DNA of 64,000 nucleotides from Deltaproteobacteria bacterium (GCA_021813445.1 JAKAKP010000147.1:1285-65284); one strand, 5' to 3'; counted from the first letter of the stretch, positions 1-53,857 are shown. Translations and numbers: made by a program. The notes: a model not told the origin generated them from the letters alone.

Positions 1-2876
1 AGGGTGGACATGGCAATGGGCCGCATCCGGTTTTTCCCGGCCAAAATCAAGGCGGTATGCCGATCCAGGTCCCGGGGTAAGGCATGGTATTCGGAGAAGT
101 AAAAGATGGCCACTTCGGTGACGATACCCACGATCATGGTCAGGCCCATCATGGAGGAGATGTTCAACTCCGTGCCGGTGAGCCAGAGGCCGATAAATAC
201 GGCGCTGAGAGCCAGAAGCGTGGTGCCCAGAATGGCGATGGCGCCCAGGAAGCGTTCATAAAGAAACAGCAGCAAGGCAAAGACCAGGACCACCGCGGCC
301 GCAAATACCACCAAAAGACCGGCAAAAGCAATCTGCTGCTGGGCATAGAGGCCGCCCAAGCGGAAGTACACGCCAGCCGGAAGCAGGCCCGGCTGCCCCA
401 GTGCGGCTTTCACGTCCCGGATCACCGAACCCAGATCCCGGCCGCTGATCCGCCCGGTGACCGCCACCATCCGCTTCAGATTGTCCCGGGTGATCTGGGG
501 TTGGCCGGTGATCACGGTGAGCTTGGCGATGCGCCGGAGGGGGAAGAAGTGCCCGTCCGGAGCCCGCAGATGCAAACGTTCCAGGTCGCGGGCGGTGCGG
601 CGGCTCCCGGGGGGCGTCCAGACCCGCACCCCCACCATTTTCGGGCCTTGTTGAATCTGGGTGGTGACCACGCCGGTCATAAAATCGGCCACCATGCAGG
701 TAACCTCATCGGGGTTGACTCCCTCCAAGGAAGCCTTATCCCGGTTCACTCGGATATCCAGGGCGTCTCCCGCCAGGACGATGCCGTCCGTGACATCCAC
801 TACCCCGGGAATCTTGCTGATGGCGGCGGCCACCCGGGGGGCCAGTTTTTGCAGGAGGCCGCCGCGGTCGGAAAAGATTTTGATCTCGATGGGCTGGGGC
901 ACTGCGGTCAGATCACCGATCAAATCTTCCATCAATTGGGCCATTTCCACATGCAGACCAGGGACCGCTTGTTCGACGCGCCGCCGCACCTCGTCCATGA
1001 CGGTTTCAATGGGTTTGCGAGGGAAAGGTTTGAGGCGGACAAAGAAATCCCCTTCATTGGCCTCGGTGAGGCCGACGCTGCCCAGCCCCAGGCCGGTGCG
1101 CCGGGAATAGGTGTCCACCTCCGGGATTTTCTGCAAGATCGCCTCCACCTGGCGGCACAGGCGGTCGGTCTCGATAAGGGAAGTGCCGGGCGGGGCATGG
1201 TAATCGATGACGAAACCGCCCTCGTCCATCTTGGGCATAAAACCGGAACCCAGGTGCTGATAAGCCAGCCAGCCTAAGGCCAGCAGGGGCACAATGCCCA
1301 GCAGGACCAGCCAGCGGCGTTTAAGAAGACGGTCCATCAAGGCGTCATAGGCCAGGTAGCAGCGCATGGTCCAGACGCCGCCGTCCTCGTGCCTGGCATC
1401 CTCGGGCCGCAGCAGGTGCGCGGCCAGAAGCGGCACGGCCAGCCAGGCCATCAGAAAGGAGATGATCAGGCTGGCCGCCATGGTCAGGGAGAGGGACTTG
1501 AAAAAGGCGCCGGTGACCCCGGAGAGAAAGGCCATGGGGGTAAAGATGATGATGGTGGCTGCCGACGATCCCGACAGGGGTTGGAAGAATTCCTGCATCG
1601 CCGCCATGACGCTTACGCGGTGGTGTGCCTCTGATTGGCGCAACCGCCGCACGATCTGCTCTTCCATGACGATCATGTCGTCGATGATCAGCCCCACCGC
1701 CGCGGCCATGCCCCCCAGGGTCATGATGTTAAAGCTCAGGTGCAGCACGTAGAGGAGCAGGATGGCGGCCCCCAGGACGCAAGGCACAATGACCGCGGCA
1801 ATGAAGGTCATGCGCAGATTACGCAGAAAGAGCCAGAGAATCAGGACCGCGCAAAGGACGCCGATGAGGATGGCGTCCCGGACGCTGCCCGCGGACGCCA
1901 GGATCAACCGGCTCTGGTCGTACCAGTTGGCGATGGTGACCCCCGCCGGCAGGTGGGGGCGGAAGCCGGCCAGCTCCTGCTTGATATCCCTGGCGATCTG
2001 CACCGTGTTGCCGCCGGGTTGCTGATAGACTTGAAAGATTACGGCGTCGCGGCCGTCGGCGGTGACCCTGGTCCATTGAGGAGCCGTGGCCGCAGTGACC
2101 CGGGCGATATCCTCCAGGCGCACCAGGCCATCTTTGCCTGAGCGCAGGATAGTCTGGCCGATTTGTTTCAGATTGTGAAAGCGGGTGTCGGAAACCACCA
2201 GGTAGAGTTTATAATGGTCTTCCAGACGGCCCACGGCGGTGATAATATTGGCGGCGGAAACGGCCTTGGCGACTTCGTCCAGGGAGAGATGAAAGCTGGC
2301 CAACCGGGCCGGATCGACCACCACGTGGTATTCCAACCGGGCCCCGCCCCCCACCCCCACCCGGGACACGCCGGGCACTGCGGAAAGCAAAGGCCGCAAT
2401 TGATACAGGGCGATGTCCCGCAACTCCACCAAGGAATGAGTCTTCGAGGTCAGGCTGTAGGCCAGCACCGGGAAAACCGTGGGGTCCATGCGCCGCACCC
2501 GGAAAGCGGTGCCGGCAGGCAGCGCAGCCCTTACCTGATTAATGGCCGATTCCACCTGGAGCATGGCAGCCATCATGTCCTGGCCCCAGTTGAAATTAAC
2601 CGAGATGTCGGCGCTGCCCCGGCTGGTGGTAGAGCGGATCTCCCCCACGCCGGGAACGGCGCGGATGGCCTCTTCCACCGGATAGGTGACCTCCACGGCC
2701 ATTCTCTCGGCGGGCCGGTCCCCTGCGTCCAGGCTCACTTCGAGGCGGGGGAAATTGACCCGGGGAAAGAGGGCCACCGGCAGGCTGAAACTGCTGACCA
2801 AGCCGCCCACGGCCATAACCGCCACCAGGAAGAGGATGGAACGGCGGTGCGCTTGAACCCACTCGGTTACCGTCAC
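1..2876 (-). CDS. RND efflux permease (CusA/CzcA/AcrB superfamily), 3' end outside window
   Basis: GTG start overlaps the MFP stop (GTGA). Manual translation MTVTEWVQAHRRSILFLVAVMAVGGLVSSFSLPVALFP... with later TLGGMAAAVGLIIDDMIVMEE, typical of RND pumps. Absent from the ORF track because it has no stop in the window. Confidence 0.9.
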   Translation of the reverse strand, partial: MTVTEWVQAHRRSILFLVAVMAVGGLVSSFSLPVALFPRVNFPRLEVSLDAGDRPAERMAVEVTYPVEEAIRAVPGVGEIRSTTSRGSADISVNFNWGQDMMAAMLQVESAINQVRAALPAGTAFRVRRMDPTVFPVLAYSLTSKTHSLVELRDIALYQLRPLLSAVPGVSRVGVGGGARLEYHVVVDPARLASFHLSLDEVAKAVSAANIITAVGRLEDHYKLYLVVSDTRFHNLKQIGQTILRSGKDGLVRLEDIARVTAATAPQWTRVTADGRDAVIFQVYQQPGGNTVQIARDIKQELAGFRPHLPAGVTIANWYDQSRLILASAGSVRDAILIGVLCAVLILWLFLRNLRMTFIAAVIVPCVLGAAILLLYVLHLSFNIMTLGGMAAAVGLIIDDMIVMEEQIVRRLRQSEAHHRVSVMAAMQEFFQPLSGSSAATIIIFTPMAFLSGVTGAFFKSLSLTMAASLIISFLMAWLAVPLLAAHLLRPEDARHEDGGVWTMRCYLAYDALMDRLLKRRWLVLLGIVPLLALGWLAYQHLGSGFMPKMDEGGFVIDYHAPPGTSLIETDRLCRQVEAILQKIPEVDTYSRRTGLGLGSVGLTEANEGDFFVRLKPFPRKPIETVMDEVRRRVEQAVPGLHVEMAQLMEDLIGDLTAVPQPIEIKIFSDRGGLLQKLAPRVAAAISKIPGVVDVTDGIVLAGDALDIRVNRDKASLEGVNPDEVTCMVADFMTGVVTTQIQQGPKMVGVRVWTPPGSRRTARDLERLHLRAPDGHFFPLRRIAKLTVITGQPQITRDNLKRMVAVTGRISGRDLGSVIRDVKAALGQPGLLPAGVYFRLGGLYAQQQIAFAGLLVVFAAAVVLVFALLLFLYERFLGAIAILGTTLLALSAVFIGLWLTGTELNISSMMGLTMIVGIVTEVAIFYFSEYHALPRDLDRHTALILAGKNRMRPIAMST

Positions 2877-3952
2877 GGCCCCGGCTCCACTTTCACTTTC
2901 ATGCCATCTTTGAGTTCGTAATTACCCAGCACCACCACCGGCTCCCCGGGCCTCAAGCCGGTCCCTTTGACTTCCACTTCCCGGTCGTTCCCCGGCCCCA
3001 GCTCCACCAAATGCTTCACTGCCGCACCATTATTTAAGGTGAACAGACTATGGCTGCGGCCTTCCGGAAGGACGGCGGCGCGGGGCACAATTAATCCATG
3101 GACGGCAGCTACGGCTATTTCCCCGGAGATGGACTCTCCCAACAGGAAATTCGTGGCGGCCGGCAGAGAGACGAAGACGTCCACCAGGTGCGTGGCCGGA
3201 TTGACGCCGTAGGAGACCTTACGGATATGACCGGTAACCCGCGGAGTCCCAGGGACATTCACCCTGGTCAAGGACACCGGCTGGCGGGGCGCCACCCGGT
3301 TGATGGCATCCGCTTCCAGCCCCAGCCGCACTTCCAGGCGATTTTGCGCCACGATTTCCAGCAAGGGGTTGCCGGCCGGAACAATGGCCCCTTCCTGGGC
3401 GAACACTTTCTTAATTAAACCTCCCACATCGGCATGAATGATGCGGGGAGCCCCAACGCCGCGCTTTTTCAGGCTCTCCAGGCGGGATTGGGCCTGTTGC
3501 AAGGCCTGTTTGGCCTGGAGCACCTGGTCATTGGTGGCCAGCTTCAGTTCAAACTTGCGTTCCATATAGCCCAGGCTTTGCCTGGCCAGGTCATACGCCT
3601 GGCCGGCCTGCTCCAGTTGCAGGGCGGTATCGGGGCTGGGCTTAATCTCCAGGAGATCGTTGCCCTTGGAAACCTTCTGACCCTGGTTGACCATGATCCG
3701 CACCACCTGGCTCTCAAACGGCACGGACACGGTCTGCACCGCGCCCGGGGCCGGGATGACTGTGCCGTAGGCGGCGATATATTCATTAATGGTTCCTTCC
3801 CTGATGGGCGCGGTCCGCACCTGGGCCACCGGCCCCGCGGCTTTGCCGGCGGCTTCCCGGCCCGGCCCTCTCGCCTGGCGCCAGCGCCAGAGGCCCACCG
3901 CCAGGAGCAGCAAAATTATGGCCAAGATAGCAAAGGTTCTTCCCCGTTTCAT
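2873..3952 (-). CDS. RND efflux periplasmic adaptor (MFP)
   Basis: N-terminal membrane anchor, lipoyl/hairpin segments, C-terminal GLRPGEPVVVLG; lies between TolC and RND genes. Confidence 0.9.
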   Translation of the reverse strand: MKRGRTFAILAIILLLLAVGLWRWRQARGPGREAAGKAAGPVAQVRTAPIREGTINEYIAAYGTVIPAPGAVQTVSVPFESQVVRIMVNQGQKVSKGNDLLEIKPSPDTALQLEQAGQAYDLARQSLGYMERKFELKLATNDQVLQAKQALQQAQSRLESLKKRGVGAPRIIHADVGGLIKKVFAQEGAIVPAGNPLLEIVAQNRLEVRLGLEADAINRVAPRQPVSLTRVNVPGTPRVTGHIRKVSYGVNPATHLVDVFVSLPAATNFLLGESISGEIAVAAVHGLIVPRAAVLPEGRSHSLFTLNNGAAVKHLVELGPGNDREVEVKGTGLRPGEPVVVLGNYELKDGMKVKVEPGP

Positions 3953-44314: not shown

Positions 44315-44436
44315 ATACCAAGTCATAATCAAACGGATATTTTTTCGTAGGGGCGAATCTTGTATTCCCCCTGCCTCGTTGGGCGAACACAAGGTTCGCC
44401 CCTACAATTTGTTGCCTTTTGATTGCGACTAGGTAT
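44315..44436. repeat. MITE-like element A containing a REP doublet
   Basis: Terminal IRs ATACCAAGTCATAATCAAA / TTTGATTGCGACTAGGTAT; internal GTAGGGGCGAA...TTCGCCCCTAC; partial inverted copy at 52294-52357. Confidence 0.75.
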
Positions 44437-46499: not shown

Positions 46500-47777
46500 G
46501 TGGGCCCATCACTAGTATTTGTGTCGAGAACCTTGGAAACCCGAGCCCTCTTCGTCCTGACTGCGCTTAATGTCCTGCTTTATGTCGACCGGTATCTCAT
46601 CGCGGCGTTGGGCAGCCTGGTTAAGGGAGAGCTGGGTCTGAGCGACCAGGCTTTCGGATTATTGGGCACCGCCTTTTTCCTGGTCTATTTCCTTACTTCC
46701 CCCCTGTTCGGTTACCTCGGGGACCGCTTCGGCTTTATCCGTCTCATGGCCGTTGGCGCAGTGCTCTGGAGCCTGGCCACCAGCCTCACTTACTGGGTGG
46801 TCTCTTACCCGGCAATGCTAGTGGCCCGGAGTTTGGTGGGAGTGGGGGAAGCTTCCTTCGGCACCCTGGCCCCTGCTTACATGGCGGATCTCCTCCCCTT
46901 GAACCGGCGCTCCCGGGCCCTGGGTATTTTTTATCTGGCGATACCGGTGGGCTCCGCCCTGGCTTATCTGGTGGGAGGGCTGGTAGGGGGCAAATGGGGC
47001 TGGCGTCCGGCCTTTCTCCTGGCCGGGTTCCCGGGTATGCTGCTGGCTCTACTGGTATTGCGGCTGCCCTCAATGGAATTAGGGAAAATTGCGAGGCCGG
47101 CGGGCGAATCCCAGACCCATCCCCTCCCCCGCGGTCATCTGGCCTCTCTCTGGGACGGCGCCCGGGCTCTCTGGCGCCTGCCCACCTTTCGGCTGGTGAC
47201 CCTGGGCTACGGCATGGTCACCTTTACCTTGGGGGGCCTGGCTTTCTGGATGCCCCGCTATCTGGAGGCGGCCAAAGGACTGGACATGGCCCAGGCCAAT
47301 TATCTGCTTTTCGGGACGGTAACCGTGGCCGGGGGCCTGGGTACCCTGGCCGGGGGATTTCTGGGGGACCGCCTCCTCAAATACACTCTCAAAGGGCCTC
47401 TCCTGGTGAGCGGGGTGGGGGTAGCCCTGTCCCTGCCCCTGGCCGCGCTGGCTATTTTTGCCAGAAATCCGCTTCTTTATGTCCCGGGGTTGGTGGGCGC
47501 CATTTTCCTGCTCTTTCTCAATCCCGGAGTACTCACCGCAGTGGTGGTCAGCGTGGCCGGACCCCAGCGCCGGGCCCAGGCCGTGGCCTTGAATATTGTG
47601 GTCATCCATCTCATCGGGGATGTGCCCTCCCCTTTCCTCATCGGCTGGCTCGCGGACATTTGGAACCTGCAATGGGGGGTATCCTTGACCCTGGTGGCCC
47701 TCCTGGGCGGAGCCGTCCTGATCCTCGCGGCTATGCCTTATTTGTCCCGGGACCTGGCCGCAGCCGGGGAACTTTAA
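46500..47777 (+). CDS. MFS transporter (spinster-like)
   Basis: YVDR, GYLGDRFG, RSLVGVGEA; multi-TM pattern. Confidence 0.9.
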   Translation: MGPSLVFVSRTLETRALFVLTALNVLLYVDRYLIAALGSLVKGELGLSDQAFGLLGTAFFLVYFLTSPLFGYLGDRFGFIRLMAVGAVLWSLATSLTYWVVSYPAMLVARSLVGVGEASFGTLAPAYMADLLPLNRRSRALGIFYLAIPVGSALAYLVGGLVGGKWGWRPAFLLAGFPGMLLALLVLRLPSMELGKIARPAGESQTHPLPRGHLASLWDGARALWRLPTFRLVTLGYGMVTFTLGGLAFWMPRYLEAAKGLDMAQANYLLFGTVTVAGGLGTLAGGFLGDRLLKYTLKGPLLVSGVGVALSLPLAALAIFARNPLLYVPGLVGAIFLLFLNPGVLTAVVVSVAGPQRRAQAVALNIVVIHLIGDVPSPFLIGWLADIWNLQWGVSLTLVALLGGAVLILAAMPYLSRDLAAAGEL

Positions 47778-47812
47778 AGACGGTTTTCAGTTTTTAGTTT
47801 TCAGCAAAAAGA

Positions 47813-47852
<40 letters not shown>

Positions 47853-47876
47853 TCTCCTGTTGAGGTGTTTTCGCGG

Positions 47877-47905
47877 TTGACTAATCGTGAGTAAGCAAGT
47901 ATACT
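47877..47905 (+). promoter_or_regulatory. Sigma70 promoter of tRNA-Met
   Basis: TTGACT-17 bp-TATACT. Confidence 0.8.
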
Positions 47906-47916
47906 AAAAAAGTTGA

Positions 47917-47993
47917 CGCGGGGTGGAGCAGCCTGGAAGCTCGTCGGGCTCATAACCCGAAGGTCGTGGGTTCAAATCCCACCCCCGCTACCA
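47917..47993 (+). tRNA. tRNA-Met(CAT), initiator type; attL
   Basis: 77 nt cloverleaf, unpaired C1, anticodon stem TCGGG/CCCGA, CCA end. Confidence 0.97.
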
Positions 47994-48072
47994 AGCTTGA
48001 AAGCACCAGGTGCGAACTGGTGCTCTCTTAGGGCCTGCCCTGCAGCCTGAAAAGTTAGGGCAGGCCCGTTTT

Positions 48073-48957
48073 TTAGGGAACGACCCTCATCAAACTCTGC
48101 CGACCTAAAACCAATTCGATAATTTTCTCTCCGTCAGGCTTCACCTCCTCCAGATACGAAGCGTATTCAAGAAAGAGCTGATCTGGGCGCGAGTGACCCA
48201 TGGTTTTGGCAACCCATAGGGGATCTTCGCCCGCCGCAATCGAAAGGGAAGCGAAAGTATGCCGAGTAGCGTATAGAGGACGTGGGTCAATATCGAATGC
48301 CCCAAGAATGGCTTTCCAGGCCTTGCGTAGCGCCTGCCTGCTGATGATCCCGCCCTTAGGGTGCGCACTGTAGAAGAACCAGGGCGAGTCCAGTTCGTTC
48401 GCCTGGCGCCGCCGCTGGTAGACTTCCCAGATCGGCCTGAGCAGGGGGACGTCTCTTTCTCCCGCCTTGGTTTTGGTGGTAACCATCTGCCCACAGCTAT
48501 TTGCCCTCCTGATCGAGACTCGCCGCTTCACCAGGTCAAAGTCATCGAAGCGCAGTCCCAGTGCCTCACCGGTTCGAACCCCCGTAAGTATTGCGAATTG
48601 GAAGTAATCCCTGTAGGGGAAGGGAGCGTAGGCCATTATTAGCCGGGCTTCTTCCGGAGACAAGGGCTTAATTTTGGATCCACGCCAGCGAAACCGCGGG
48701 ATCTCGTAGAGGGTCCCGTTCCAGATTTCGCGCCGACGCGCCCAACTCACAAATGACCTGATGGCCGAGATGATGTTGTTCTTTCGCTTTCCCGAGATGG
48801 CCAGCGCCGCCAGGTACTCTTCAAGACCCAGGTTCAGGTCCTCGAAGTTCTCAAAATGAGAGATGTGGTGCTTGAGGATGGACCGATAGTCAAGGTAGGT
48901 GGACGGTTTCAGCCGCCCCTGATAGGTGCGTAGGAACTGGTCAATAATTCCGTTCAT
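48073..48957 (-). CDS. Tyrosine recombinase/integrase
   Basis: TGVRTGEALGL, TKTK, YATRHTFAS, MGHS...Y catalytic motifs. Confidence 0.95.
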   Translation of the reverse strand: MNGIIDQFLRTYQGRLKPSTYLDYRSILKHHISHFENFEDLNLGLEEYLAALAISGKRKNNIISAIRSFVSWARRREIWNGTLYEIPRFRWRGSKIKPLSPEEARLIMAYAPFPYRDYFQFAILTGVRTGEALGLRFDDFDLVKRRVSIRRANSCGQMVTTKTKAGERDVPLLRPIWEVYQRRRQANELDSPWFFYSAHPKGGIISRQALRKAWKAILGAFDIDPRPLYATRHTFASLSIAAGEDPLWVAKTMGHSRPDQLFLEYASYLEEVKPDGEKIIELVLGRQSLMRVVP

Positions 48958-49210
48958 CCCTGGCCCCCTGAGGGATGCCCCAGGCCTGGGCCATCTTGGG
49001 GGACCGCCCAGGCCCAGGGGTTGAGGTTGAAAAGCTTAGCAGGCCTTTCTCCTCGTTCCAACTAATGCAGGTTTTGTTATTGCAATGTCAAGTAAAAAAG
49101 ATTCGTAGTCGCTTCGCTCTGCTATTGATATGCGAGCCTCAATGTGGTTGAAGTAGCGATGTTTGTTAATCGAAAGGCATATAAATAAAAAGGAATAATT
49201 TTACCATCTT

Positions 49211-49297
49211 TCGGGGCGGCATCTGATAATGCAGCATTATGTTAAGACCAGCCTTCAGCAGGTTAACATAATGCGACATTATCAGACGCCGCCCCGA
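49211..49297. repeat. 35 bp inverted repeat made of two dif-like sites
   Basis: TCTGATAA-N7-TTATGTTAA in both arms; 17 nt spacer. Confidence 0.85.
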
Positions 49298-49680
49298 GCA
49301 GCGGTAGACTTTTTCTTATCGGGGGCTGCGTCCCGGCCTCTTCCGGGGCTCCTGGGTTTGCGGGGGGCGCCGGCGCGCCCGGGCGTCCCTGCCCGGGGCC
49401 GGCGCCTGGCTTCTTCCGGTGTCCTCCTTTTGCGGGCGTCTGCCGGGCCTCCGCCCCCGAACTCCCCGCCCGCCCACCTCTCGGAGTCCCGGCTCTGCCG
49501 GGCCAGAAAATTCGCCGCCCGAGGCTCTGCCGTCCGGTGGCCGGCTGCCCATTGCCGGGGAAGAGGGGCGGCCCGGGCGCGAATCTTCATACGCTAAAGC
49601 GAATTCGATTGCGCCCGGGCCGCGCGCGTTTGCCTGGCGCTCTGCCCCCGGCTTCAGGGCAACCGGCCACCGGAACCGGG

Positions 49681-49876
49681 GCCTGAACCCAGACCCTGGG
49701 GGTTCAGCGTAGCAGCGGCCGCCCCAGGGCCGTCCAGGGCGAAATTTTTTCATGGCCATGACCTGGTGATGACCGACCATGGCCATGAAAAAATTTCTAG
49801 ATCCCCAACAGAATGAGGTGCCCTGGACGGCCCTGGGGCTCCGTGCTCGAGTTCAGTTGGGGGTCTGGGTCCAGGC
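49681..49876. repeat. Long nested inverted repeat (bulged hairpin)
   Basis: Perfect 20 bp pairs 49741-49760/49778-49797 and 49721-49740/49820-49839; 15/16 pair 49681-49696/49861-49876. Confidence 0.9.
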
Positions 49877-49974
49877 TTCGCGGCGCGCGTCCGGAGGAGA
49901 GGAGCGGAGTTGAAAGGTTGGGGGCGAGGGTGTCAATTTATTGACAGATCGGGCGAAATCGGTTTTCTTGATTC

Positions 49975-50160
49975 TTGATGAATGAATCTTTAAAGCTGGT
50001 TAGTAAGATGCTGCCGCTTCTCCTGGAACTCGCCCTTCTGGATGATCCCGGCGACGTCGTCGCCGCCAGGCGCTTCCATCTTTACAGCACCACCATTTAC
50101 CGCTGGCTCCGGAACTCCGGGAATGAAATTGTGTTGACCAGGTCAAGGGCCCCTTCGTAA
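49975..50160 (+). CDS. Small HTH-like protein
   Basis: VAARRFHLYSTTIYRW HTH pattern; TTGACA upstream. Confidence 0.5.
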   Translation: MMNESLKLVSKMLPLLLELALLDDPGDVVAARRFHLYSTTIYRWLRNSGNEIVLTRSRAPS

Positions 50161-50303
50161 ATTTGCAGCTTGGAAAGTATCTCTCTGGCTATCTCTGCGC
50201 CTTGCGCCGGCGTCATGGCCATCACCCGCAGAGTGCCGAATTCCCCTTTGAATTCGTAAAGAGAGAATTCAACTGCCCTCTTTTTTCGCGGCCGTTTCCT
50301 CAT
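50097..50303 (-). CDS. Small hypothetical protein
   Basis: ATGA coupling to the upstream ORF; GAGG RBS. Confidence 0.55.
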   Translation of the reverse strand: MRKRPRKKRAVEFSLYEFKGEFGTLRVMAMTPAQGAEIAREILSKLQIYEGALDLVNTISFPEFRSQR

Positions 50304-50488
50304 TCTGATAATCCTCTTTCCAGGTCCCCAGGGAGGTGCTCTCCTCTCCATAGTCCATCAATGTTTTGCTCGGGCTCATACTTCATCACCCGCCAGGCTA
50401 TTAGGATTATGAAGATGGCCACCAGCAGCCAATAAAAAGCTACCATTCCCCAAACCATTGGGCTAAGGTCCTGCCACCTTTTACTCAT
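50300..50488 (-). CDS. Small single-TM membrane protein
   Basis: GGAGG RBS; hydrophobic helix; overlaps both neighbours. Confidence 0.6.
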   Translation of the reverse strand: MSKRWQDLSPMVWGMVAFYWLLVAIFIILIAWRVMKYEPEQNIDGLWRGEHLPGDLERGLSE

Positions 50489-50837
50489 TTCCCTCCTCCT
50501 GCAGCCCCTTTTTGAAGCGCTCCATGATTTCCGCCATGAAGCCCTCGAGCCATACGCGCTCTTTCTTGCTCATTTTCACGTCTGAAATTCTGAAAACCTC
50601 TGCTTTTTTGCGTTTTTTCCGCCGCGCCTTCCTCTCCCGCCTGGCGCTGGGCGCCTGGCTGGCCATCATATCTTCCGGGAGGTGCCAGGTCCCGGTCAGG
50701 ATCCGGATCTCGATCCCCAGGCCCTCGCCTTCGATGAGGTCCCAGTTCAAATTTTGCCCGATGAAGAGGTTGCACGCCTGCCTGATTCCCCGGGGAATTG
50801 TGATCTGCCACCGCTGCCTGATGAGCCCTCGCTCCAT
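50481..50837 (-). CDS. AbrB/MazE/SpoVT-like DNA-binding protein
   Basis: QRWQITIPRGIRQACNLFIGQ motif; AGGAG RBS. Confidence 0.75.
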   Translation of the reverse strand: MERGLIRQRWQITIPRGIRQACNLFIGQNLNWDLIEGEGLGIEIRILTGTWHLPEDMMASQAPSARRERKARRKKRKKAEVFRISDVKMSKKERVWLEGFMAEIMERFKKGLQEEGNE

Positions 50838-51547
50838 AGCCTCTCCTGCTCGATGTCGGCCCGCCTGGCCACGCTCTCAACCCAGGCCTGGGCGTTTCGG
50901 GCTTGTCGGTTTCCGTCCTGGATGAAGCGCAACGCCGCAAAAAGCCTGGCTGCCCGCGATCGCTTTTTCGCTTTTGCTCTGGGCGCGATGCGGTATACCC
51001 GCATCTCCATTTTTTCCAGCTCTTCCCCGCTCAGCCTGATCACTTCCTGGAGTAAATCCTTTTGCCCCAGGTCCATCCACGCTTTAAAGCTTTCTTTAAA
51101 CACTCTTAAGCTTAAGCTAAGCTGTGTCTCCGCCTGGCCACCCATGTCCGGGCGCTCCGGCCCCGCCTTGGAACCACCGCCGTTTCCCTGATCTCCACGC
51201 TTGGACATGGGTGTCCAGGTAGGCTTCTCTGAACCCCCATTTCCGCCCCCGCCTGGACATAGGCGTCCATCCGCCTGGACATACATGTCCAGGCGCAACC
51301 TATCCACCAGGTGAACGATGATTTGCCCGGCCTGGTTTTTTGGCCGGTGGAGGACCAGCAGAAAATTCTTTGACTCCAGGCTCAAAAGGTGCCGCAAAAA
51401 TTGCTTGGCGCTATATACTTCCCGCAGCCAGCGGCTTTCCCGGATTCTTGGAACGGTAACTTTCGATGATTCCTGTCGGTTTGCCAGGTCACAGAGGTAA
51501 GTCCAGACCCATAACTCCCCCGGTTGGAGCTTCAGGACCTCATCCAT
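50747..51547 (-). CDS. Putative replication initiator (phage O-like architecture)
   Basis: N-terminal winged-helix-like region; Gly-rich linker whose DNA holds four palindromic repeats and an AT-rich tract. Confidence 0.6.
   Translation of the reverse strand: MDEVLKLQPGELWVWTYLCDLANRQESSKVTVPRIRESRWLREVYSAKQFLRHLLSLESKNFLLVLHRPKNQAGQIIVHLVDRLRLDMYVQADGRLCPGGGGNGGSEKPTWTPMSKRGDQGNGGGSKAGPERPDMGGQAETQLSLSLRVFKESFKAWMDLGQKDLLQEVIRLSGEELEKMEMRVYRIAPRAKAKKRSRAARLFAALRFIQDGNRQARNAQAWVESVARRADIEQERLWSEGSSGSGGRSQFPGESGRRATSSSGKI
51081..51295. other. Putative intragenic replication origin
   Basis: CGCCTGGACA-N4-TGTCCAGGCG-type repeats at 51131, 51198, 51250 and 51272; AT-rich 51081-51123. Confidence 0.65.
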
Positions 51548-51582
51548 TCCCCCCCGCCTTCCAAGGCCCTAGTCGCGACTGC

Positions 51583-51632
51583 TCGGGCTCATAACCCGAA
51601 GGTCGCAGGTTCAAATCCTGCCCCCGCTACCA
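51583..51632 (+). repeat. attR (3' part of tRNA-Met)
   Basis: TCGGGCTCATAACCCGAAGGTCGCAGGTTCAAATCCTGCCCCCGCTACCA. Confidence 0.95.
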
Positions 51633-51640
51633 AGAAATCC

Positions 51641-51672
51641 AAGGGGCTTAGGTTAAAATCTAAGCCCTTTTT
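51641..51672 (+). terminator. Intrinsic terminator (probably the original tRNA terminator)
   Basis: GGGCTTAG...CTAAGCCC followed by a T run. Confidence 0.75.
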
Positions 51673-52061
51673 CTTTATCCCTGGAATTTCCATCCTCCCA
51701 CTAATCCCCAAAGAGCAGGAGTAAAGAAGGGTACGAGGGGACAGATTGCGGCCTGGTGTCCGCCTCTCGGCCTGAGCAGTCGCCGCTTGCTGGGCCAGGC
51801 AGGCAGTCACTTTTCTTCTCCCCGTAGCCTACCGCAGGGGCGCTCCACCCCTTACAGTTGCGTCACCCGCGGCCAGGTGCCCGCCCCAGGCTGCCTGCGA
51901 TGGGACTCAGCCACCACAAATTTTTGAAAAAATCTCTCCCTCCGCTTGGGGGTTGATAAATCCAGGGAAAATTATGCTACTATTGCTGGCGTCAAATAAT
52001 GCGGCTATAAGAATCGGGGTTAAAAACGTTTTTCAACCCTGATGTCAAAAAGAGTCCCCAG

Positions 52062-52343
52062 ATGATGAAAAGACTGACGGGAATACTCGGGTGGCTGGCA
52101 TTTTGGCTTTTGGCAGTGGCTCTGCTCACCAGCGGTGGCGCCTGGGCCAAGGCCACCACCGCGGAGCAGGCCCAAACTGTGGTGCTGAACTGGCTCCGCC
52201 TGGACGGCGTGCCTCTGGGCGCGGCCATGGCCCAGCAGATCAAAGAAGTTCAAACTTTTTCTTATGGGGGCTCCCCCGCCTATTACGTGGTGTCGAGGCA
52301 GGGCGAATACAAGATTCGCCCCCACGAAAAAATATCCGTTTGA
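52062..52343 (+). pseudogene. Exported protein (C10 peptidase propeptide-like), truncated by repeat A
   Basis: Signal peptide plus TTAEQAQTVVLNWL...AYYVV, then runs into the repeat at 52294. Confidence 0.55.
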
Positions 52344-52747
52344 TTGCGACTTGGTATTAGGCGCGAAGAACCGGCTAGGTCTTTGGCGAGTAATCCCTAA
52401 TTTGCTGCTCCACCTTAGAGGATGACAGACTAAAGACGGCCACCGGGTGATAGAACAGGCGGCGGTCTTTCCAGGAATAGGTCAATTCATCCAGGTATTC
52501 CAACACTTCCTGCTTGGGTGCGTTAAGAAAAAAGAGAATCCTCCCTTAACTTATTTCAAGTTCGTTTTTGGATGCAACAAATCCTAAAGACCGGCGTGTA
52601 TCGGCGTGCATCGGCGGCTAATATTTAACCGCCGATAAACGCAGATAAACGCCGCTGATTCTGCCGGTTTTTTTGCATGGCAATATGAATTTGTTATTAT
52701 GCGCTGCCTGATGCCAGACAAGCCCGAAATTAGGTGGATAAGGACTT

Positions 52748-53857
52748 TTAGAACTCACCTCCGGCAAGCTCGCCGATTATACCCCTGATGACGCGTTCCT
52801 GTAATTCGATACTCTCCATCAGCCGAAACTGCACCAGGGCCCGGGCCAGGTTGTGTTCCGGGCTCCGGACCTTGAAGTAGACATTTCCCGCCAAATAATC
52901 GGTAAAGAAGCGCAGCCCCAACTCAAAGGGCAGGAGTCGAATGGCGGCAAAGAGATAGTCATAGTCGCCGGAGGTGAGGAAGCCCCGGGCCTGGGAGAGA
53001 TAGCCCCGGAGCAGGGCGCGGCAGATTTCGGAGTCGAAATGCACCGCCTGCCAATCCCCGGTTTCCTCCCCCAGTGGGTTACAGCCGGAGCGGAGGCAAT
53101 CCCCCAGATCATAGTGCACCAGGCCGGGCTTGACCGTGTCCAGGTCTATCAGGGCCACAGCCCGGCCGCTGGCCGCATCCAGCAGGACGTTGTTGACCTT
53201 GGGATCGCCGTGGATGGTGCGCCGCGGCAGCTTGCCCGCGGCTTTGGCCTCCTCCAGAACCCCGGCCCCGGCCCGGCGCGCGGCCACGTAGCGGTGGCAC
53301 CAGTCCGCTTCCGGGGACTGCTTCCCAGGACCCTGGGCGATGACCTGGTCATAATGGCGCAGATACCGGGGGAGGTGGTGAAAGCCGGGGAGGGGGTCCG
53401 CCAATCTTTCCGGGGGAAGATCGCTGAGCAGATAGTGGAAACGGCCCAGGGCATAACCTACTTCCCGGGCGTGCTCCAGGTCCTGGATGGTGTCCTGGGA
53501 CCGGGCCTGGTCAATAAAGCTGAGGGCCCGCCAGAAGGCCCCGTCCGGGTCGAACCAGTGGTCCTGGCCGCCCGCGGTCAGGAGCACCTCCGGCACTTCC
53601 CAGCGGCGGCCCGGGGGCAGGGACTCCTGCTGCAAACGGCCCCGCAGGTGCGCGGTGAAGGTGCGCAGGTTCTCCATGATGAGTTCCGGGCGGGGAAAGA
53701 CTTTGGTATTGAGGCGCTGCAGGATGAAGCTTTTGACAGCCGCACCTTCCAGGGTCACCAGGAAGGTGGCGTTGATATTGCCCTGGCCGTATTCCTTAAC
53801 GTCCAAGACGCGGCCCTGGGGGGTGAATTGTTGGGCGGCGGTAAAGCAGTGGGACAA
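52748..53857 (-). CDS. Aminoglycoside phosphotransferase-family kinase (N-acetylhexosamine kinase-like)
   Basis: GQGNINAT, IHGDPKVNN, IDLDTV, RFFTDYL. Confidence 0.88.
   Translation of the reverse strand: MSHCFTAAQQFTPQGRVLDVKEYGQGNINATFLVTLEGAAVKSFILQRLNTKVFPRPELIMENLRTFTAHLRGRLQQESLPPGRRWEVPEVLLTAGGQDHWFDPDGAFWRALSFIDQARSQDTIQDLEHAREVGYALGRFHYLLSDLPPERLADPLPGFHHLPRYLRHYDQVIAQGPGKQSPEADWCHRYVAARRAGAGVLEEAKAAGKLPRRTIHGDPKVNNVLLDAASGRAVALIDLDTVKPGLVHYDLGDCLRSGCNPLGEETGDWQAVHFDSEICRALLRGYLSQARGFLTSGDYDYLFAAIRLLPFELGLRFFTDYLAGNVYFKVRSPEHNLARALVQFRLMESIELQERVIRGIIGELAGGEF

Follow-up and report, generated by a model that had tools for sequence, protein, structure and literature searches.

Positions 47,917 to 51,632 of a 64,000-nt stretch of DNA from Deltaproteobacteria bacterium (GCA_021813445.1, JAKAKP010000147.1:1285-65284; this whole stretch is referred to as the window) contain an element inserted in a tRNA gene, which we interpret, at a probability of roughly 0.7, as a self-replicating integrative mini-plasmid (episome) of an undescribed family. 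It is an intact-looking member of a family of 3.4-4.0-kb integrative mini-plasmids whose origin follows a lambda-like design. The original prediction, made from the sequence alone, had described a small integrative plasmid or satellite that depends on host or helper functions. The plasmid half of that description was strengthened by a free circle, by minimal relatives and by a proposed origin inside rep, which it had not seen, and the satellite half is judged unlikely below.

Integration in the initiator tRNA gene

The insertion (47996-51582) comprises 3,587 bp and is bounded by a tRNA-fMet gene and by a second copy of the 3' half of that gene. The element DNA is present once in its genome, which is 97% complete. 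The features that define the integration are listed here (att, attachment site; int, integrase gene).

47917..47993, plus strand: initiator-type tRNA-Met(CAT) gene, the integration target on the attL side (ARAGORN; Rfam 61.2 bits)
47941..47995, plus strand: attL copy of the 55-nt att repeat, from the anticodon stem to CCA plus 'AG' (direct-repeat families D1 and D2)
47996..48072: left terminus of the element, with two hairpins rich in G+C that separate the tRNA from the stop codon of the convergent int; a T-run follows the second
48073..48957, minus strand: tyrosine integrase, 294 aa (PF00589, E 6.4e-15, 55.8 bits against a cut-off of 27.1; PHROG 1, E 3e-49)
51580..51634, plus strand: attR, the displaced original host tRNA 3' half, with T-stem GCAGG/CCTGC (D1 and D2; Rfam partial tRNA, 26.7 bits)
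51641..51670, plus strand: host tRNA terminator hairpin, outside the element and now downstream of attR (terminator scan)

The tRNA-Met gene is the single tRNA gene found by ARAGORN in the window and, as read from the sequence, it carries both hallmarks of an initiator tRNA, a mismatch at the first pair (C1/U72) and three G-C pairs in the anticodon stem (GGG/CCC). Given that att repeats flank the insert and that one of them lies inside the target gene, the insertion belongs to the site-specific integrative elements, and the tRNA gene, attL and attR are located where the original prediction had put them. In strict register, the repeat at 51583-51634 is 92% identical, with five differences over 52 nt. 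The integrase, also foreseen from the sequence, is a member of the tyrosine recombinase/phage integrase family PF00589 above the curated threshold. Its N-terminal domain is SAM-like (PF14659, 23.6 bits against a cut-off of 22.6), and no arm-binding domain was detected in the 294 residues.

The T-stems of the tRNA copies show where the strands were exchanged. The stem GTGGG/CCCAC is common to the attL tRNA of the window and to the attP of a free relative (L010/L011, described below), the attR of the window has GCAGG/CCTGC and the genus relatives have GTAGG/CCTAC, each stem being internally compensated. Since the attL stem equals the attP stem and the attR stem is of host type, strand exchange is placed 5' of the T-stem. 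As judged from these stems, the working tRNA in the lysogen is a chimera that takes its T-arm and 3' part from the element.

An uninterrupted site is found in a genus relative (G008), where the MFS gene and the tRNA are followed, after about 100 nt, by the gene that in the window lies at 52748-53857. A terminator hairpin similar to that at 51641-51670 is located 3' of the tRNA in five genus relatives. The two hairpins at the left end of the element (folding z of -2.5/-2.9 for 47996-48195) also look like terminators, and a near-identical stretch is present 3' of the tRNA, beside an int remnant, in another genome (G005).

A third, degenerate copy (69%) of the anticodon/T-arm region of tRNA-fMet is located upstream of the tRNA gene at 47817-47868, and a promoter-like TTGACT-17-TATACT follows it at 47877-47905. 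The degenerate copy could be left over from an earlier integration event or from a tandem tRNA gene.

An initiator-like protein with a proposed origin inside its gene

The replication module consists of one gene, here called rep, and of repeats embedded in it.

50747..51547, minus strand: replication-initiator-like protein, 266 aa, of an unnamed family (AlphaFold2 model, BFVD structure matches, embedded dyads)
51081..51127: AGCTTAGCTTAAGCT palindrome and A+T-rich stretch adjoining the iterons, proposed unwinding region
51135..51291: four dyad repeats TGGACA-N4-TGTCCA (iterons) in the linker-coding DNA of rep, proposed origin

The AlphaFold model, built from an alignment of 26 sequences, has a mean pLDDT of 74.5 and consists of a confidently predicted winged helix (residues 1-90), a disordered linker (95-144) and a helical C-terminal domain (145-241). 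Among the predicted viral structures of BFVD it has matches at E values from 3e-4 to 1e-2, seven of them at E <= 0.001 and spanning both domains, and the named entries among the top 50 are lambda GpO N-terminal, replisome organizer, replication initiator and replication protein C. Solved structures match the winged helix alone (ORC/Cdc6 winged helix, Z 8.2, rmsd 2.9 over 81 residues; pPS10 RepA, Z 6.9). The initiator-like gene of the original prediction is thus supported by the predicted fold and by the embedded repeats, and it has no match to any library family. We infer that the 266-aa protein would initiate replication.

The dyad TGGACA-N4-TGTCCA has seven matches in the 64 kb (1.98 expected), of which four fall within the 157 nt listed above, and an extended form of the motif has three sites with 0.00 expected. 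The dyads start in codon phases 2, 0, 1 and 2 and encode unrelated peptides (LDMYVQ, DGRLCPG, WTPMSK and PDMGGQ), which indicates that the repeat is kept as DNA and not as protein. Element-specific dyads are located at the same place in all five rep genes read, those of the window and its relatives, as TTGACA-N4-TGTCAG in L009, GGGAAC-N4-GTTCC in L028, GGTGCG-N4-CGCACC in L029 and the window type in L010; the AGCT-palindrome (AGCTTAGCTTAAGCT) with its A+T-rich block is at the same rep position in four of the five (window, L009, L010 and L028). Sites that change together with their protein behave as iterons do, and the comparison points to selection on the iterons at the level of DNA. Clustered, element-specific repeats beyond chance, the mark of an iteron-type theta replicon, are thus present.

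In the lambda record, four 18-bp iterons lie at nt 349-433 of the 900-nt O gene and are followed by an A+T-rich stretch; the window dyads lie at nt 257-413 of the 801-nt rep. Both genes therefore contain iterons with an A+T-rich stretch after them, which is a likeness of functional design and not of family membership.

Relatives and the circular form

The DNA of four distinct relatives was read (L010/L011, L028, L009/L012 and L029). L010 (3,411 bp) and L011 (3,120 bp) are two metagenome records from two samples, both without chromosomal flank. Positions 1-2284 of L010 correspond to 837-3120 of L011 at 99.96% identity, and 2569-3411 to 1-808 at 95.6%. L010 starts and ends inside int; L011 has the whole int and bridges the ends of L010 by 28 nt, and L010 in turn bridges the ends of L011 by 284 nt. 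Together they form a circle of about 3,439 bp with the order int, attP, rep, AbrB-like gene, 78-aa gene, two HTH_17 genes, non-coding region and again int. A junction of int 3' end, att and rep 5' end is impossible in a single integrated copy and must come from a circle or a tandem, and a circular form with attP was thus found for this relative.

The other relatives are integrated. In L028, from a metagenome-assembled genome, the same gene order is found between perfect 50-nt repeats spaced 4,015 bp apart inside tRNA-fMet, and the neighbourhood is that of the window (aroA-MFS-tRNA synteny). In L009/L012 and L029, attR junctions reveal additional copies in this tRNA, and the gene set agrees.

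Among 1.84 billion cluster representatives (50% identity), the Rep family has 40 relatives at E <= 0.001, nearly all of 240-270 aa. In the 32 rows for which the longest contig was listed, 19 contigs measure 3.0-5.8 kb, 10 fall below this range and 3, including the contig of the window, exceed it. The integrase clade has 96 clusters, at least 50% identical or partial, and the next integrases are at 32-35%; here 43 of the 96 contigs are below 3 kb, 37 are of 3.0-5.8 kb and 16 are longer. The pile-up of contigs at the size of a whole element is suggestive, as it is what complete small circles would give.

In genomes the family is much rarer. A first scan of genome contigs for Rep gave no match. 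Rep was detected in 2 of 61 relatives (its own genome and, as a weak N-terminal fragment, G004) and in 1 of 401 genomes sampled from the phylum, and the integrase was found at E <= 1e-20 in 1 of 9 genus genomes. Word searches of open-access text turned up no account of elements like these, which is weak evidence of absence, and the family is apparently undescribed. A family that is not rare in environmental data yet nearly invisible in genome collections marks a blind spot of mobile-element catalogues.

Traces of related elements were observed in other genomes. Next to tRNA-fMet in G005 (L027, G005:C51 11651-12109), the last ~70 codons of a related int and two terminal hairpins abut a fragment of an ABC-transporter ATPase; to judge by this sequence, the locus is a decayed copy of a related element. 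A contig of G006 (L023, G006:C34 1-163) begins 73 nt before an attR-type junction and is 79% identical to window 51528-51672, and this genome probably holds a related element, unassembled or unbinned. In G004 (L008, G004:C140 241-1743), about 90 residues similar to the winged helix of Rep (36% identity, E 6e-6) are fused in frame, within a 500-aa open reading frame (ORF), to a part that by eye looks like a nickel-insertion protein of the LarC type (DUF111), probably a relic of another family member. Further partial copies of the tRNA 3' half are located downstream of tRNA-fMet at ~8.6 kb in G001:C35 and at 31.6 kb in G002:C140, and in sister species this tRNA gene appears to be the insertion site of different, larger islands.

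These comparisons bear on whether the element is a deletion remnant of a larger prophage or of an integrative and conjugative element (ICE). Decay does occur at this locus, as illustrated by the int remnant of G005 and the N-terminal Rep fragment fused to larC in G004. However, gene content and order are the same in four independent relatives, which measure 3.4-4.0 kb and one of which is a free circle, and all ORFs of the element are intact with coding-type G+C content at third codon positions (GC3). Homologues lying always inside larger prophages had been named beforehand as the sign of such a remnant, and the opposite was found, the relatives being the same minimal element. A remnant is accordingly very improbable and already contradicted.

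State of the window copy and evidence against self-replication

Four sequencing runs of one study, one of them possibly the source, contain the stretch, and they were examined as Logan contigs, which are broken at the repeated tRNA half and hence blind to attP or empty attB. The piece that contains the element is 3,652-3,667 nt long in three of the runs and measures 3,399 nt in the remaining one. The depths of the element and of its two flanks were 22.6 and 18.2/24.3, 11 and 12.5/10.5, 13.2 and 16.1/21, and 9.46 and 11.5/12.4, figures that are not copy numbers. One joint, from 47931 to 51586 in run X2 (depth 5.16, side 24, 13 foreign letters between), was rejected because it was below the reliability bar and probably belongs to the tRNA of another organism. 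The window copy may still excise.

Several observations weigh against a self-replicating plasmid. The element is single-copy in its genome, and no circular or empty-site form of the window copy was seen in the Logan contigs, which are interrupted at the att repeat. The fold matches are weak, with TM-scores of 0.2-0.3, although low scores are expected for a model of two domains joined by a floppy linker, and the winged helix is a generic DNA-binding fold for which Z values of about 8 are common. With the Rep model, Foldseek found no match in the PDB at E <= 0.001, a sequence search of the PDB gave none below E 0.1, and the protein has no Pfam (E <= 1), PHROG or NCBIfam match. When the 26-sequence Rep alignment was compared with lambda O using hhalign, the probability was 0.2%, and by sequence Rep is not a member of the lambda O family (Phage_rep_O). 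None of the 12 window matches to the DnaA box (<= 1 mismatch) lies inside 47996-51582; DnaA boxes are not needed by all iteron-type theta replicons. The Rep family was found in no curated plasmid of PLSDB at the sensitivity used. Finally, the mini-plasmid model leaves the non-coding kilobase, a quarter of the element, unexplained.

Part of this evidence would suit a different role for the 266-aa protein, that of a winged-helix repressor with the dyads as its operators, in an element that integrates and excises without replication of its own. The protein has no sequence homology to known initiators, a winged helix fits many transcription factors equally well, and the depth figures of the element, which are not copy numbers, are similar to those of its flanks. 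Four phased dyads followed by an A+T-rich stretch in the gene's own linker are, however, the layout of an origin and not of an operator, and the structure matches over both domains at full length are replication proteins. In addition, the attP contigs of relatives without chromosomal flank in two samples would be hard to obtain from rare non-replicating circles. A repressor is therefore considered quite unlikely, and the protein is treated below as a putative initiator.

Other genes of the element

All genes of the element are on the minus strand except that of a 61-aa helix-turn-helix (HTH) protein. In addition to int and rep, the following features were identified.

49931..49946: palindrome TGTCAA-TTTA-TTGACA just upstream of the HTH gene (read from the sequence)
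49975..50160, plus strand: HTH protein, 61 aa (weak HTH_28 match, E 0.019)
50097..50351, minus strand: basic protein, 84 aa (counterparts at the same position, 78 aa in L010 and 97 aa in L028)
50300..50488, minus strand: ORF with a single hydrophobic (transmembrane) helix, 62 aa (ORF list)
50481..50837, minus strand: AbrB-like protein, 118 aa, with an N-terminal SpoVT/AbrB-like motif (first 40 residues) and a basic stretch

The three tiny ORFs and the AbrB-like gene of the original prediction were recovered here, and the first two of the three (61 and 84 aa) have syntenic counterparts in relatives. The homologue of the HTH protein in L012 is 110 aa long and matches HTH_23 at E 9.5e-5, under the cut-off. 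In L010 and L028, the place of the HTH gene is taken by two genes of the excisionase family HTH_17 (41.5 and 38.1 bits against 27 in L010). From its gene position alone, the 61-aa protein is a candidate excision or regulatory factor. The palindrome upstream of it may represent two back-to-back -35 boxes or an operator, and a similar TGTCAAAACTTTGACA is found at the equivalent place in L028.

The AbrB-like gene overlaps with its start the end of rep by 91 nt. PF04014 matches the same residues in the AbrB-like protein of the window and in two homologues, three of three examined (E 0.095, 4.4e-4 and 1.8e-3), with scores of 13.1, 20.6 and 18.6 bits that are all below the cut-off of 24.7. The N-terminus is conserved, and GC3 is 0.78 against 0.39 at second codon positions (GC2). 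The structural model (pLDDT 58.7; best structural match Z 4.2) was too poor for fold comparison, the Atlas gave no usable match, and a homologue search gave just two shorter gene calls. The motif suggests that this is probably a DNA-binding regulator. For the 84-aa protein, no Pfam, PHROG or NCBIfam match was found, and the Atlas leads were all under its bar. The 62-aa ORF has no family match and was not seen in the ORF lists of L009, L010 and L028; it is optional or doubtful.

In agreement with the original prediction, the six ORFs scanned with Pfam, PHROG and NCBIfam gave no match to capsid, terminase, primase or relaxase families, nor to portal families. In the rest of the 97%-complete genome, three genes like coupling proteins of type IV secretion systems (T4SS) and two HK97-type capsid genes are present, PF03432 relaxase and Terminase_6N were not found, and no other DNA resembles the element.

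An integrase, an HTH protein and a replication module without morphogenesis genes are also the core of minimalist (PICMI-like) phage satellites, in which a helper induces excision and replication and concatemers enter the capsids of that helper via a cis site, here perhaps in the non-coding kilobase. The Rep fold resembles phage replisome organizers, and the two HK97-type capsid genes could belong to helpers. On the other hand, the element is without phage-derived genes, and its Rep family was not found in IMG/VR (two alignments, A1 and A4) or among the 50,697 phage records of INPHARED, an absence that does not exclude a satellite. Moreover, as the element DNA matches nothing else in its own genome, it has no long pac or cos region in common with a resident prophage. 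We consider a satellite unlikely, and an autonomous mini-plasmid remains the preferred interpretation.

The non-coding kilobase

The stretch between int and the HTH gene, which had been described beforehand as about 1 kb of highly structured DNA without a convincing gene, retains this description, with strong folding z on both strands, no codon periodicity and no shared ORF.

48958..49974: non-coding, hairpin-rich stretch of ~1 kb (folding z, flat codon-position GC)
49193..49315: hairpin A, 53-nt imperfect inverted repeat with a 17-nt loop (I1)
49533..49674: hairpin B, 18-nt arms 94% complementary, enclosing a further hairpin (I7; folds)
49681..49876: hairpin C, nested inverted repeats including two perfect 20-mers, a rod of ~200 nt (I11, I2, I3)

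The stretch is divided into an A+T-richer part (48996-49295, GC 0.42-0.44) and a G+C-rich core (49296-49695, GC 0.71-0.75). GC by codon position is flat in the core (0.74/0.74/0.71), compared with 0.56/0.43/0.66 in int and 0.69/0.43/0.80 in a flanking gene. Folding z reaches -5 to -10 on both strands in 49096-49395 and 49496-49895 (-9.2/-9.4 in the hairpin C area, 49696-49895) and is about 0 in flanking genes. The signal is equal on both strands, and its source is the three large inverted repeats. Rfam over 47500-52500 at E <= 1 gave the tRNA matches and two chance-level rows, with no family in 48958-49974. The TCTGCCGGGCC motif showed no specific enrichment, and the promoter/terminator scan of this region was uninformative.

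The position of the non-coding region between the HTH genes and int is kept among the elements, with sizes of 1.0 kb in the window, 0.8 kb in L010 and 1.2 kb in L028, and the overall G+C content is high in all three (0.61-0.65). No ORF in six frames and no nucleotide similarity is common to these three regions, nor is there any with the first 160 nt of L012. Folding is strong in L010 (z to -7.6) and weak in L028 (z about -2), and by eye L010 2510-2575 contains a TGATAA..ATTATGT inverted repeat resembling hairpin A. Tandem repeats, of which none was found in the window, form two arrays in L010, (GCCAGGTC)x4.9 (8 nt) at 2107-2145 by the HTH genes and 36 nt x 3.7 at 2663-2793 upstream of int; it is in the 36-nt array that L011 departs from L010 (95.6% identity, indels).

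This region might serve as a site for transfer or packaging, hold copy-control sites, form a long leader of int or encode an RNA. That it is not a spacer and acts as a hitch-hiking module, in the form of an oriT-like or pac-like cis site or of a large structured RNA, is a tentative suggestion that we regard as rather doubtful. If it were true, these 3.4-4.0-kb replicons, at about 60% of the size of PICMI115, would be the smallest bacterial elements known to combine integration and replication with parasitism of a helper for transfer.

A more specific proposal is that the element spreads by conjugation with nothing but an origin of transfer (oriT), one of the large inverted repeats of this region being nicked by the relaxase of a helper. 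Large inverted repeats are typical of oriTs and are found here, no relaxase is present among the six ORFs scanned, and the genome has the three T4SS coupling-protein-like genes mentioned above. Integrative elements that bear an oriT and lack a relaxase are reported as frequent in a recent preprint (bioRxiv 10.64898/2026.01.13.699239). However, the region has no counterpart elsewhere in the genome, a search of this 97%-complete genome gave no PF03432 relaxase, the non-coding sequence is not conserved among relatives and the L028 region is only weakly structured (z about -2). Such a hitch-hiker is improbable, and the mini-plasmid reading is retained in what follows.

Repeats in the flanking DNA

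Two further observations concern the DNA around the insertion. About 40 nt at 47772-47812 (ACGGTTTTCAGTTTTTAGTTTTCAG...), just upstream of the degenerate tRNA copy, have dozens of matches in all 8 other genus genomes and represent a dispersed family of short repeats. On the other side, the empty site of G008 lacks the segment of about 1.1 kb (51648-52766) that separates attR from the next conserved gene. This segment contains a 93-aa ORF (52062-52343), the tail of which (GEYKIRPHEKISV) is repeated in inverted orientation at the start of the aroA region (~44329-44380), and the depth of contigs climbs several-fold at 52238-52800. The inverted recurrence and the rise in depth suggest another short multi-copy repeat.

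A proposed mode of maintenance

The following scheme would account for an integrative mini-plasmid of this kind. The short tyrosine integrase would recombine the tRNA-fMet 3' half borne by the element (attP) with the host gene, with a crossover 5' of the T-stem, such that the tRNA of the lysogen would carry the T-arm of the element and the old 3' half of the host would remain at attR. Excision would probably be directed or regulated by the small HTH protein, and the excised circle of ~3.6 kb would replicate in theta mode. The winged-helix N-terminal domain of Rep would bind the four dyad iterons in its own linker-coding DNA, the A+T-rich stretch beside them would melt, and the helical C-terminal domain would recruit host replication proteins, which would amount to a lambda O/ori-lambda design without a P-like loader. 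The AbrB-like and 84-aa proteins are probably regulators, and integration would ensure that a replicon without a partition system is stably inherited.

The family shows the minimum with which a bacterial element would integrate and replicate, namely an integrase, an initiator with a nested origin and two or three small DNA-binding proteins within 3.4-4.0 kb. It adds an initiator family without detectable sequence relatives that would have arrived at, or kept, the lambda O/ori design. The spread across hosts of an element without any transfer gene is a testable question, and the small att-int-rep cassette could serve as an integrating or shuttle vector for poorly tractable bacteria of the sulfate-reducer type.

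Comparison with known systems

With lambda O and ori-lambda, the element has in common an initiator architecture in which a flexible linker joins an N-terminal DNA-binding domain to a C-terminal domain, as well as four dyad iterons followed by an A+T-rich stretch inside the gene. In contrast to lambda, it has no P-like helicase loader, its Rep has no sequence relation to O, and it is a 3.6-kb plasmid-like element and not a phage.

A replicon combined with a tyrosine integrase that targets a tRNA gene is also found in integrative plasmids that occur both integrated and as episomes, such as the archaeal pTN3 and pSSVi and the pSAM2-type AICEs of actinomycetes, and a review proposes that integration serves a replicative plasmid simply as a means of safekeeping (PMC8371274). 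The Rep family of the element is unrelated to those of pTN3, pSSVi and pSAM2. Compared with pSAM2, which is given as 10.9 kb and resides in a tRNA (PMC2440964), the element is one third of the size and has no transfer gene, and unlike the archaeal 'suicidal' type, its integrase gene is intact after integration and its host is bacterial.

Among satellites, PICMI115 is reported to be 6,110 bp long, to have three core proteins, to be packaged as 8-mers and to be the smallest for which activity has been characterised (PMC10803314). As described there, it resembles the element in its minimal set of integrase, small HTH protein and replication protein without capsid or packaging genes; the element is about 60% of its size, targets a tRNA and not the fis region, and has a different replication protein. 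For the element, moreover, no sign of a helper phage or of packaging was obtained in the viral collections searched. Integrative mobilizable elements (IMEs) with theta-replication genes and oriT-only 'iOriT' islands are described as possibly replicating briefly after excision and as relying on others for transfer (PMC5704250; bioRxiv 10.64898/2026.01.13.699239), and here again there is a likeness; in contrast to these, no relaxase was matched in the ORFs of the element, which is far smaller and without cargo.

The kind of element is thus already known, as a plasmid that also integrates into a tRNA gene. What is new in this family is its smaller size, below that of pSAM2-type elements and of PICMI115, an initiator without sequence relatives and an origin nested in the initiator's own gene.

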